Source: a virus | Taxonomy: Duplodnaviria; Caudoviricetes | IMG/VR virus record: IMGVR_UViG_3300021978_000001 | Location: 96,001-160,000 of that record | Direction: 5' to 3' (one strand) | DNA length: 64,000 nt | In this document: positions 14,408-32,771 of the stretch, one piece after another | Numbering within the stretch: the stretch's first letter is position 1 | How the letters are laid out: the number at the start of each line of letters is the position of its first letter | Position numbers and translations under genes: made by a program | Notes under the pieces: model-generated | The model's input: the letters and a program-made list of their open reading frames with translations, nothing else | Told to the model about the DNA's origin: nothing | The model's database searches: none

Positions 14408-14730
14408 CTCCTAAGCCCCGCATGCGCGGGGAACCTGGTTTGTGCTATCTGGCACGGCGGGCCATCCCCGCATACGCGGGGAACACTCTCTCTTGTCGTC
14501 TCAGTCAACGCCAGGTGTGGGGCCATCCCCGCATACGCGGGGAACACTGCGTGTAGAGTGAGCCCCTCTCTTCCCAAACGGGACCATCCCCGCATGCGCG
14601 GGGAATACGCGAATCAAAATCGAGGTCAAGCCCTTCTTGGCGGACCATCCCCGCATGCGCGGGGAACACTGCGCTTCCTTGTCTTTCTCGTCCTTCGAGC
14701 GCGGACCATCCCCGCATGCGCGGGGAACAC
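14408..14730 (-). CRISPR. orphan type I-E-like mini-array: 5 full repeats plus 1 degenerate, four 33-nt spacers and one 23-nt spacer
   Basis: Repeat GTGTTCCCCGCGCATGCGGGGATGGTCC at 14459, 14520, 14581, 14642, 14703 (61-nt period); leader and TTGACA promoter at 14731-14840; no cas genes in window. Confidence 0.95.
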
Positions 14731-23993: not shown

Positions 23994-24038
23994 CTCTTGA
24001 GACTGACACTAAGAATGAATGCGAACCCTGAAGGAAAG

Positions 24039-24110
24039 TGACCGTGGGGGGAATCGAACCCCCAACCATGGCTTTTAGAGAGCCTTGCTCTGCCGTTGAG
24101 CTACACGGTC
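24039..24110 (-). tRNA. amber suppressor tRNA (anticodon CTA)
   Basis: Full cloverleaf GACCGTG/CACGGTC, D-stem GCTC/GAGC, loop CTCTAAA, T-arm GGGGG-TTCGATT-CCCCC. Confidence 0.85.
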
Positions 24111-24213
24111 ATGTGTGATGGAAGGTGTCTTCTAGTGTTTGCCGGACCAGAAGCAAGCGTATAAGCCAAAGCAAAGTACGATTCACCTTCCACCACAAAG
24201 GTGGAGACAGATA

Positions 24214-24241
24214 GGTACATCCCCGCAGGTGCGGGGAGCCT
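24214..24241 (-). CRISPR. solitary, diverged I-E-like repeat
   Basis: AGGCTCCCCGCACCTGCGGGGATGTACC; CCCCGC-N4-GCGGGG hairpin in the same register as the array repeat. Confidence 0.6.
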
Positions 24242-27374: not shown

Positions 27375-27485
27375 AGGAGGTTGCACGGGATTGAACCGTG
27401 CTATCGCTCATGTCAGCCCGAAGGCACCACGCGCGAATTATCCGAGAACCATAAACCCGGCATTTCGACACGCCGTTTGGTCTCC
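27375..27485 (-). ncRNA. tRNA-like structured RNA of unknown class
   Basis: Ends in T-arm CACGG-TTCAATC-CCGTG then ACCTCC; several hairpins including GCC-TTCG-GGC; no standard cloverleaf. Confidence 0.4.
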
Positions 27486-27514
27486 TGAATGTCGATGTGG
27501 TTGCATGCGAGGCG

Positions 27515-27542
27515 GGACCATCCCCTCATACGAGGGGAACAT
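27515..27542 (-). CRISPR. solitary I-E-like repeat with compensatory stem change
   Basis: ATGTTCCCCTCGTATGAGGGGATGGTCC (CCCCTC/GAGGGG stem). Confidence 0.8.
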
Positions 27543-29661: not shown

Positions 29662-29720
29662 GTAATCGTGGCCCAAGCACTGCTTCGTGCAGTGAACATC
29701 CCGAGTGCTTGAGCCACGAT

Positions 29721-29924
29721 TCACGCATGTTCGGTGCCCGTGGCTTCCTCGATAAACGAGGAAATCACATGACGTTGAACCACCGCGTGGGGTGTCGCTT
29801 GTGACTGTGACCACACCTCGATAGTGCTCATCGAAACCTCGAAACGATCGGCAAGCTCTCTGCTGCTATGCAATTCTCGCAAGTAATGCAAGGCGAACAG
29901 GAAGAGTTTATGCGTCTCATTCAT
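29721..29924 (-). CDS. small HTH protein
   Basis: SSRELADRFEVSMSTIEVW helix-turn-helix pattern. Confidence 0.6.
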   Translation of the reverse strand: MNETHKLFLFALHYLRELHSSRELADRFEVSMSTIEVWSQSQATPHAVVQRHVISSFIEEATGTEHA

Positions 29925-30494: not shown

Positions 30495-30609
30495 AGAATG
30501 CCTCCCAGTGTACGGTGTCGAGCACACCGAGAGGACTTTTCACTGTGGTCGTCGAGCGATCTCAGTGAGAGCGTTATGCCACACCTTACGAGAAGGTGTC
30601 AAGACAATT

Positions 30610-30825
30610 TCATTTTTTCTTGAGGTCAGCGTCGGTGAGGCTCTTTTTCTGCCAAGCCGCCTCTTCCTCTTTAGCGCATCGCTTGCTGTACCGCCACGCG
30701 ATGGCATGGTCAATACGATCAAGCTCCTCACGCTCCTCGACGGTCAAGGTGCCTTGTGCTTCGAGCGCACGTTGTTGAGCTTTGAGCCTTTCGATGTGTT
30801 TCCGATCTGCATCTTCATCAGTCAT
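30610..30825 (-). CDS. hypothetical protein
   Basis: GAGG RBS, helical composition. Confidence 0.5.
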   Translation of the reverse strand: MTDEDADRKHIERLKAQQRALEAQGTLTVEEREELDRIDHAIAWRYSKRCAKEEEAAWQKKSLTDADLKKK

Positions 30826-30944
30826 GCTTACCTCGTCTGAAAAGTACCCTGCCGTAAGTTCGCTTCTCATGCGCCCTCGTCTTAAAGGCGCACAGAATAC
30901 CCCTCCCCAGAGGTAAAGTTTAGAATGATGAACCCGACAGGGTA

Positions 30945-31017
30945 TAGCGGGTGAGGGAATCGAACCCCCAACTGTAGGTCATGAGCCTACCGAGATATAC
31001 CGTTTCTCCAACCCGCA
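30945..31017 (-). tRNA. tRNA-Met(CAT), 1:72 mismatch (initiator-like)
   Basis: GTAGG-CTCATGA-CCTAC. Confidence 0.88.
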
Positions 31018-31051
31018 ACAAATGAGTGTGCTGTTCCTGTGCCCCGGCGCC

Positions 31052-31195
31052 GGACCATCCCCGCATACGCGGGGAACACGCTCCACAACACACTCGGGCG
31101 CCTGGGTATACCCACGACGCAGATCCGCTTGACGGTGGAGCGACAGGCGGAAGTGGTACGGCAAGGCGAACCATCCCCGCGCACGCGGGGAACAT
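31052..31195 (-). CRISPR. two I-E-like repeats (31052-31079, 31168-31195) separated by 88 nt, between tRNA-Ile and tRNA-Met
   Basis: Near-identical to the array repeat. Confidence 0.85.
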
Positions 31196-31235
31196 GGACC
31201 TCACGGATGCATCGACGCGAGATCTCACCATACCA

Positions 31236-31309
31236 TAGCTGGACGCGGACTCGAACCGCGAACCTCAGCCTTATCAAGACTGCGCTCTAACCTGTTGAGC
31301 TATCCAGCT
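31236..31309 (-). tRNA. tRNA-Ile(GAT)
   Basis: Canonical cloverleaf. Confidence 0.93.
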
Positions 31310-31313
31310 TCAA

Positions 31314-31387
31314 GTGCTTGCCCCTGGACTCGCACCAGGATCTCTCGCGTGATGGCGAGCAGGTTACATACGGCTACCATGGATACC
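31314..31387 (-). pseudogene. degenerate tRNA-like sequence
   Basis: CCTGG-TGCGAGT-CCAGG T-arm, 6-nt anticodon loop, poor acceptor pairing. Confidence 0.45.
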
Positions 31388-31406
31388 TTGACCCCAGACA
31401 AGCAAG

Positions 31407-31555
31407 TGTACATGAATCGAACAAGGTAGTGAGCAAGGGGTTTTTACGAGTGCTACCGTTACACCACATGTCCGGGTGGACATGCTGGGACTCGAACCCA
31501 GACCACGCGCTCCGCTGGCGATAACCCTTATCTCGGTCATCTCGATTCATGTACA
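31407..31555 (-). tRNA. circularly permuted tRNA-Arg(GCG) (31447-31520) inside hairpin cassette
   Basis: CGC-CAGCGGA-GCGCG, T arm, CATGTCC-ACCC-GGACATG, D arm, TCG; joining gives a perfect CGCGC/GCGCG stem. Confidence 0.8.
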
Positions 31556-31556
31556 G

Positions 31557-31630
31557 TAGGGCTGACAGGAGTCGAACCTGCGACCATCTCCGTGTAAGGA
31601 AGCTGCTCTGACCAACTGAGCTACAGCCCT
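31557..31630 (-). tRNA. tRNA-Val(TAC)
   Basis: Canonical cloverleaf. Confidence 0.9.
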
Positions 31631-31666
31631 GTGATGTGCTTGCTCGGATAAGGGAAGTGGCGAGCG

Positions 31667-31757
31667 GCGCCATCCCCGCATGCGCGGGGAACACTAAATC
31701 TGAACAAACACAAGCAGAGCGCCCGAGATGAACCATCCCAGCATATGCAGGGAAATC
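31667..31757 (-). CRISPR. repeat-spacer-repeat unit (31667-31694 and degenerate 31730-31757, 35-nt spacer) upstream of tRNA-Val
   Basis: GTGTTCCCCGCGCATGCGGGGATGGCGC plus a degenerate copy. Confidence 0.75.
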
Positions 31758-31839
31758 AACGTATGCCTTTCGCGCTCTGTGGTGAAAGGTAGCTGGGTAC
31801 CGTTGACTCTCCCGTAGGAGCGGCCCCTGCTTGCCTCTC

Positions 31840-31960
31840 ACGCTTTGTTATGCGTGCGTTCCTATTCACTTGTCAAAGATCTTGAGTCGTTGGCGTTGTG
31901 CGTTGCACCGTCGCCGTGACATCAACCGTTATGCCTTGTTCAAATCATGCTGTCAAGCAT
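31840..31960 (-). promoter_or_regulatory. tandem TTGACA...CATAAC promoters heading the tRNA/ncRNA cluster
   Basis: TTGACA-N17-CATAAC near 31928-31956 and TTGACA-N18-CATAAC near 31846-31875. Confidence 0.6.
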
Positions 31961-32009
31961 TTTCTTCCTGAACCGGGCAAAAAGTTCGATCGGAGTGCAT
32001 CCGATCCAG

Positions 32010-32086
32010 AGCAGCCAGTGGGAATCGAACCCACAACCTCCTCGGGACCATCACCACAGATGTGGTGAAAATTGAGCCATGGCTGC
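32010..32086 (-). ncRNA. tRNA-CRISPR repeat chimera
   Basis: Acceptor GCAGCCA/TGGCTGC and intact T arm; the D/anticodon region is a 28-nt repeat variant at 32045-32072. Confidence 0.75.
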
Positions 32087-32165
32087 TTGCTCGTGAAGGG
32101 CGTTGCCGTTCACGAGAGACACAACTAGGTGACGTGGAGAGTTATTCCACACCACCACGCGCGTG

Positions 32166-32771
32166 TCAAACGTTCTGTGGGAATTGAGCCAGGAGATCCT
32201 GATCCTGACCTGCAACACGCTGAACAGGGATGGCCGTAAACGTGGACCGCAGGCTCGCCGCGTAAGGCGTCTCGACCAGGAATTGGTATGCAGGCGCACA
32301 CTTGATCGACTTCTGATCGCCCACACGTTGGCATTCGATCACGATGTCCTTTCCGACGCGGTTGGTGACCGAGGCGACACGCTCGACCTTCCCGACCTGC
32401 AACCCCGCACCCATCACGCGATCATCCGTCACGACCTTGCGCGCGATCTTGGTGACGTAGAACAACCCTTCAGCGTCGAGGAAGAGCGCCGCCATGCGGT
32501 CCTCGAAAGCGCTCTTACAGGAACTCTTGCGGTGATGGGAAAACGCACATTCGAGCTTGCGCAAACCATACACCACACCAAAGCCATCACCTTGGTGCGC
32601 GTACTTGACGAGGATGGCGCACGCTTCCTGAATAGCCTTGCGGGTCTCTCCCGCCGAAGAGGAGACCCACGCGTCTACTTGCGTGGCAAGGGTATGTGCC
32701 TGGAGAAAGTAGGAGAGCGCGGTTTGGGGAACGATGATCGCGGACATGATAGACACCTCGTGGTCAGTCAA
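32166..32771 (-). CDS. hypothetical protein
   Basis: Promoter motif at 32808-32836. Confidence 0.6.
   Translation of the reverse strand: MTDHEVSIMSAIIVPQTALSYFLQAHTLATQVDAWVSSSAGETRKAIQEACAILVKYAHQGDGFGVVYGLRKLECAFSHHRKSSCKSAFEDRMAALFLDAEGLFYVTKIARKVVTDDRVMGAGLQVGKVERVASVTNRVGKDIVIECQRVGDQKSIKCAPAYQFLVETPYAASLRSTFTAIPVQRVAGQDQDLLAQFPQNV

Follow-up and report, generated by a model that had tools for sequence, protein, structure and literature searches.

When a phage that encodes its own type I-E CRISPR effector also carries two of its repeats directly ahead of a tRNA gene, the question arises whether these repeats supply guide RNAs or owe their position to something else. Here, this question was addressed for tRNA-Val(TAC) of a virus of the class Caudoviricetes. 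The DNA analysed, a stretch of 64,000 nt (the window), spans bases 96001 to 160000 of one virus record of 437,490 bp (IMGVR_UViG_3300021978_000001), which has direct terminal repeats and was rated complete by CheckV. Coordinates refer to the window unless marked as genome positions.

The repeat unit ahead of tRNA-Val

The phage uses a 29-nt type I-E repeat, present in about 70 copies in about 12 short arrays, on the minus strand throughout and mostly with a period of 61 nt. Several of these arrays sit between the cas genes. For a weight matrix, 56 canonical repeats were taken from the phage genome; they themselves scored 33.3 to 48.9 bits. The canonical array within the window served as the reference (Table 1). 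In a whole-genome scan with this matrix, 74 scanned segments of the minus strand exceeded 10 bits; on the plus strand, used as the control, none exceeded 10 bits and one exceeded 6 bits. A consensus search gave 8 matches in the window versus 0 in 100 shuffles of the window. Both repeats ahead of tRNA-Val are true relatives of the phage's repeat family, far beyond chance.

The unit has the makings of an array: two direct repeats of the cognate family on one strand (one of which folds weakly), a spacer of array-typical length (spacer A), and cognate processing and effector genes in the same genome. The mini-CRISPR array fused to the tRNA gene is real and statistically secure. The first-pass annotation had read this place as a repeat, a spacer, a second repeat and a spacer-length segment followed by tRNA-Val, and this order was recovered on the minus strand. 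Its two lengths, 35 nt for the spacer and 36 nt before the tRNA, each proved to be one too many. Among the spacers of the phage's arrays, 32 nt is the modal length (n = 38), with 33 nt (n = 4), 34 nt (n = 3, including spacer A), 29 nt (n = 2), and 36 nt (n = 1) making up the rest; the 34 nt from repeat to repeat and the 35 nt from repeat to tRNA both lie inside this 29- to 36-nt range. The adjoining tRNA-Val is the only one listed among the 26 tRNAs of the window, and the seven tRNAs outside the window are those for Leu, Ser, and Thr.

Table 1. Coordinates of the tRNA-linked repeats, their surroundings and the reference features (window positions unless marked as genome)
Feature	Position	Strand	Remark
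Degenerate type I-E repeat	31757-31729	-	weight matrix 20.6 bits; 8/29 positions off consensus
Spacer A	31728-31695	-	34 nt, between both repeats
Near-perfect (good) type I-E repeat	31694-31666	-	weight matrix 40.3 bits
Segment B	31665-31631	-	35 nt, spacer-length; equals the 5' leader of tRNA-Val
tRNA-Val(TAC)	31630-31556	-	ARAGORN; Rfam tRNA 64.8 bits
Leader, P2 to first repeat	31758..31846	-	~85-89 nt; predicted long irregular hairpin
Promoter-like motif P2	31847..31876	-	TTGACA, 18 nt, CATAAC; promoter function putative
Promoter-like motif P1	31928..31956	-	TTGACA, 17 nt, CATAAC; promoter function putative
Terminator-like hairpin and T run	31988..32006	-	consensus scan; closes the preceding small unit
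tRNA-like chimera with repeat-like hairpin	32086-32009	-	preceding small unit
Sister unit of the same operon	31051..31195	-	repeat 31195-31167, 87 nt, repeat 31079-31051, 32 nt, tRNA-Met; 41.5 and 49.0 bits
Repeat 35 nt downstream of tRNA-Ala(TGC)	27514..27542	-	33.8 bits; compensated stem CCCCTC/GAGGGG
Terminator-like hairpin	27475-27458	-	38 nt after the tRNA-Ala repeat
Canonical array with the same repeat	14408..14730	-	five full repeats and a degenerate last one; 61-nt period; own leader
Cse1-Cse2 (Cas8e-Cas11) fusion, Cas5e, Cas6e, Cas7e, Cas3	genome 13651-22339		

The two repeats are unequally conserved. The first 25 nt of the good repeat are identical to the repeat of the main array, and its last four nucleotides are CGCC instead of TCCG. 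Three of these four handle positions are off consensus, and the same CGCC ending occurs in one canonical repeat (genome 13286-13314). In the degenerate repeat, both partners of stem pair 9-18 are changed, leaving a T.T mismatch, and the 5'-handle part ATGGTTCA is well kept. Hairpin energies were -17.4 kcal/mol for the good repeat versus -8.6 kcal/mol for the degenerate one, and in a 287-nt transcript the predicted pairing probability of the Cas6e hairpin was ~1.0 and ~0.13, respectively. About half of the terminal repeats of canonical arrays are handle-mutated and about half are intact, so handle retention cannot serve as an argument. The tRNA-proximal repeat has 0 changes in 25 core nucleotides versus 8 in 29 for the upstream copy. 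This inequality suggests that the proximal copy has been maintained, the chance of it under neutrality being roughly 3e-4 if both repeats arrived together.

A predicted route from transcript to guide RNA

Two promoter-like motifs precede the unit (P1 and P2 in Table 1). The underlying pattern TTGACA-N17-19-ATAAC occurs four times genome-wide versus 0.28 times expected from base composition, and all four copies (at 32169, 31956, 31876, and 30602) are found where the tRNA cluster has its head (30573-32169), on the strand that carries the tRNAs. Possibly, the small-RNA operon has a promoter class of its own, marked by this pattern. The unit had been annotated as the first cargo after tandem promoters and, for that reason, as presumably highly expressed. 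Its place in the order stands, with two motif copies ahead of it; high expression is a presumption. The -10 element (CATAAC) was not called in a sigma-70 scan and lacks the conserved final T.

The leaders of the canonical arrays are of two types, ending in ...gtgacaagatgtctcaga or ...actgaacatttgaaga. Neither type was found in the leader of the tRNA-Val unit, and the same was true of the other tRNA-linked repeats. With the weight matrix, no cryptic extra repeats were detected in the unit's leader or in the 87-nt gap of the tRNA-Met unit. A leader of ~100 nt ending in actgaacatttgaaga is common to five arrays; canonical arrays outside the window are located at genome 13164-31211 and 405003-408652.

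The unit lies ~100 kb from the cas genes. Cas1 and type I-E Cas2 were sought in the phage genome and neither was found, by searches that matched both in control genomes. Cas8e and Cas11 are fused, with a Cse2 (Cas11) domain at the C-terminal end of the Cas8e gene product. Cas6e retains the His aligned with His20 of E. coli CasE as well as the C-terminal Gly-rich loop, and the protein is predicted to be catalytically competent. With the catalytic His present, processing at the good repeat is plausible.

The reading that we favor, at a probability of roughly 45%, is that of a two-repeat mini-array at the head of a phage tRNA/small-RNA operon, which is co-transcribed with tRNA-Val and processed by two enzymes. 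The course that we infer, from transcription through both cuts and Cascade loading to a target, would start at the duplicated TTGACA...CATAAC motif and run through the degenerate repeat, spacer A, the good repeat, and segment B into tRNA-Val. Type I-E Cas6e cleaves at the 3' base of the repeat stem; by this rule, the phage Cas6e would bind the hairpin of the good repeat and cut between 31674 and 31673. Host RNase P would cut at the 5' end of tRNA-Val (31631/31630) and thereby define the 3' end of segment B. The spacing is that of a guide ended by RNase P, with 35 nt from the repeat end (31666) to position 1 of tRNA-Val (31630) and putative cleavage at the latter.

Two products could result. 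The first would be a 43-nt RNA (31673-31631) composed of the 8-nt crRNA 5' handle AUGGCGCC and 35 nt, with no 3' hairpin. The second would require that the degenerate repeat be cut too, and would be a 63-nt crRNA of canonical build (31736-31674) containing spacer A. Given the broken stem of the degenerate repeat and the low predicted probability of its hairpin, this 63-nt crRNA may never gain its 5' handle. Both products could load into the phage's type I-E Cascade-Cas3, which operates without Cas1 and Cas2. By analogy with viral mini-arrays, related phages would be the likeliest targets. Overall, the unit is a plausible source of guides.

A guide that lacks the 3' hairpin is made plausible by published precedents. 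According to one report, type I-B and type I-E interference can do without Cas6 and without the 3' hairpin; for E. coli Cascade, a 5' handle, a spacer, and a single nucleotide of the 3' handle suffice, and it works in the absence of Cas6e (PMC4499155). In Haloferax, an icrRNA was cut out of a laboratory construct by RNase P and tRNase Z (Maier et al. 2015, PMC4326828), and crRNAs excised by these tRNA-processing enzymes were active. Like the icrRNA and polycistronic tRNA-gRNA arrays, the unit has a guide-length RNA abutting a tRNA, so that tRNA enzymes can set an end. Those engineered guides are laboratory constructs, whereas the tRNA-Val unit would be a natural one, known here from its sequence. 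It also differs from them in that tRNA processing would supply just one end, the 3' end, with Cas6e still needed for the 5' handle.

A repeat placed just downstream of promoter-like motifs could serve another purpose. Viral solitary repeat units, or Racr (Camara-Wilpert et al. 2023, PMC10651486), likewise consist of a phage CRISPR repeat outside an array and beside a predicted promoter. A strongly transcribed repeat of this kind could soak up Cas6e, Cas5e, or Cas7e of a type I-E system of the host or of a rival phage, and the repeat pattern is indeed frequent in bacterial type I-E arrays, mostly actinobacterial ones. We regard such a decoy as highly improbable. The type I-E effector of the phage is complete, and about 50 of its spacers use the same repeat; a decoy would thus poison the phage's own system. 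In addition, the unit is not solitary, having two repeats 34 nt apart and a cognate type I-E effector in the phage, and the exact 28-nt repeat was present in none of the genomes of the reference set. The repeat was also considered as a clue to the host, which was not decisive: its pattern is common in Actinobacteria and its exact 28-mer occurs in no reference genome.

In six Streptomyces phages from GenBank (Piccadilly, Ignacio, Vondra, Cumberbatch, Eastland, and HFrancette), a 24-nt exact match to the repeat core was observed at sites with no annotated feature (e.g., OL455886.1, 34716-34739). These matches in small actinophages are possible solitary repeat units. Among 39 other viral contigs with solitary matches to the repeat pattern, none had a match adjoining a tRNA.

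Repeats at other tRNA genes

The mini-array read as a dual-processed guide source can be compared with the other repeats of the phage that stand apart from arrays. Eight repeats lie outside the canonical arrays, and all eight are inside or within ~100 nt of a tRNA or tRNA-like gene, a distance at which only 2% of the genome lies from any of the 33 tRNAs. At three loci, the distances are of guide length: 35 nt at tRNA-Val, 32 nt at tRNA-Met, and 38 nt, up to the terminator hairpin, at tRNA-Ala. Repeats of the family have covarying stem positions (CCCCGC/GCGGGG, CCCCAC/GTGGGG, and CCCCTC/GAGGGG), and several of the non-array repeats retain the hairpin through compensatory stem changes. The tRNA-Ala repeat and its hairpin (27458-27542) resemble in layout a unit-sized crRNA ended by transcription termination.

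Several further elements were observed near tRNA genes. A weak but real relative of the repeat (24213-24241, minus strand, 17.2 bits; the control strand had none above 10 bits) lies ~100 nt upstream of a suppressor tRNA with the anticodon CTA (24038-24110). A very stable 18-bp hairpin (29664-29721, minus strand; z = -5.8) ends 2 nt before tRNA-Gln and contains a CAAGCAC motif that also precedes tRNA-Val and tRNA-Ile. Directly after tRNA-Val, a weak match to the Rfam family YrlA (Y RNA-like) was obtained at 31420-31528 on the minus strand, its 24.8 bits being below the threshold of 69 bits. The two arms of a perfect 14-nt inverted repeat (31407-31420 and 31542-31555) enclose this match.

The association with tRNAs might also reflect RNA processing with no guide role at all. 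The repeat hairpins would then be sites at which Cas6e cuts or binds to separate, trim, or stabilize tRNA and Y-RNA precursors; one effect would be to take the ~170-nt 5' leader off pre-tRNA-Val and leave a 5'-OH end. Such a role would fit the presence of repeats on either side of tRNAs, upstream of tRNA-Val and tRNA-Met and downstream of tRNA-Ile and tRNA-Ala, given that a repeat downstream of a tRNA cannot yield a 5'-handled guide from the RNA between them. It would also fit the good hairpin, very stable in its context, and the predicted competence of the phage Cas6e. However, RNase P alone removes any 5' leader, so that Cas6e is not needed for tRNA-Val, and most tRNAs of the cluster have no repeat. 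A literature search turned up no precedent for such a role of Cas6e. We consider punctuation of the transcript distinctly unlikely.

Targets and origin of the two segments

Protospacers for spacer A and segment B were searched for as the first-pass annotation had proposed, and no target was found for either in the phage's own genome or in GenBank phages, nor was a match to spacer A obtained in IMG/VR with every sixth base left free. Relatives of the phage were also sought. None were found among viral contigs queried with the adjacent ORF, an AAA protein, and Cas7e; among metagenome contigs aligned with the adjacent ORF; among GenBank phages searched by blastn; or through protein look-ups of spurious ORFs across the unit. 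Exact patterns of tRNA-Val and of the tRNA-Lys chimera had no other match in viral or metagenome contigs. Variants of the adjacent ORF, which lies at 32166-32747, do occur with 98 to 99% identity, only in Logan assemblies.

Segment B has a resemblance nearer at hand. It shares with the tRNA-Ile leader the ordered blocks TGCTTGT, GCTCGCCA, and GCAAGCAC, and the last of these stands 4 to 5 nt before both tRNA-Val and tRNA-Ile. The chained alignment of segment B with this leader gave a p value of ~0.018 against dinucleotide shuffles; pairwise similarities among the Val, Met, and Ile flanks gave p values of 0.04 to 0.5, and only the chained Val-Ile comparison reached ~0.018. Because of the shared blocks and the equal distance of GCAAGCAC from the two tRNAs, segment B may be a native leader. 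The comparison is suggestive of a tRNA leader-type sequence and not a captured spacer.

Two other properties of the segments were considered and set aside. In the minimum-free-energy fold, spacer A and segment B form a helix of 11 plus 3 bp. Equally good pairing was reached by ~25% of pairs of real spacers and by 7.6% of shuffles, so this helix was not significant; a like helix at the tRNA-Met unit was not significant either. Self-regulation in the manner of CreA was sought with seeds of 9 to 11 nt and blastn-short, and only chance-level matches were obtained, none at a nearby promoter. The only 13-nt seed match, that of segment B, falls within a long open reading frame (genome 415194). Like CreA and cr-like RNAs (PMC8501985; Shmakov et al. 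2023, PMC10120712), the unit has a degenerate repeat and a second repeat flanking a spacer-like segment of non-standard length. Unlike CreA, it is not beside the cas genes and has no partial seed match to a nearby promoter.

The native look of segment B bears on a neutral account of the unit, by which recombination placed a fragment (repeat-spacer-repeat) of one of the phage's many arrays in the non-coding leader of tRNA-Val. This graft or relic might still be cut by Cas6e, but the products would guide nothing, and the 35 nt would be the tRNA's own leader, consistent with the resemblance to the tRNA-Ile leader. The missing targets of spacer A and segment B, the decayed upstream repeat, and the lack of a canonical array leader agree with this account, as does the tRNA cluster itself, a large non-coding tract that tolerates insertions. 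In the absence of Cas1 and Cas2, moreover, repeats can move only via recombination. Several observations are harder to reconcile with a relic: the 25-nt core of the proximal repeat is perfect whereas the other repeat, at a distance of 63 nt, has decayed, three separate loci have distances of guide length, every non-array repeat is at a tRNA or tRNA-like gene, and compensatory stem changes have kept the hairpin in several of them. On balance, we find the neutral account somewhat unlikely.

Two spacers in different arrays outside the window (genome 28873-28904 and 25917-25948) have a run of 17 identical nucleotides in common, a hint of inter-array duplication or recombination in this Cas1/Cas2-less system.

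Recombination might also be the very means by which this Cas1/Cas2-less system gains guides. A repeat would be grafted beside conserved sequences of the tRNA cluster, with RNase P supplying the 3' end of the crRNA. With the 43-nt product as guide, Cascade-Cas3 would attack competing sister phages at their tRNA-Val leader, which has no graft. In the phage itself, the repeat occupies the PAM position and would thereby shield the phage's copy. Such an origin of guides strikes us as unlikely.

The dual-processed mini-array has its closest natural counterparts in viral CRISPR mini-arrays, which contain one or two spacers (Faure et al. 2019; Medvedeva et al. 2019; reviewed in PMC11656645) and mostly target related viruses (PMC11656645). 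In common with these, the tRNA-Val unit is phage-borne, has two repeats and one spacer outside a large array and downstream of a promoter-like element, and would be expected to act in virus-virus conflict. Viral mini-arrays borrow the Cas proteins of the host, whereas this phage brings its own Cascade-Cas3. The unit further differs from them in lying inside a tRNA operon, its last repeat being followed by a tRNA instead of a trailer, and in that no target in a related virus was found for it.

Viral mini-arrays and engineered tRNA-flanked guides are each already known; a natural combination of repeat, guide-length RNA, and tRNA in one transcript did not turn up in the literature searched. Even if its products do not load into Cascade, the unit clearly documents that array fragments recombine into operons of non-coding RNA. 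If they do load, tRNA processing can stand in for a downstream repeat in nature, and a phage CRISPR system that has no acquisition can still gain guides. Should these guides prove to be made by recombination, the unit would be a natural counterpart of engineered tRNA-guide arrays. With loading, the tRNA clusters of phages would also be a battleground among related huge phages.
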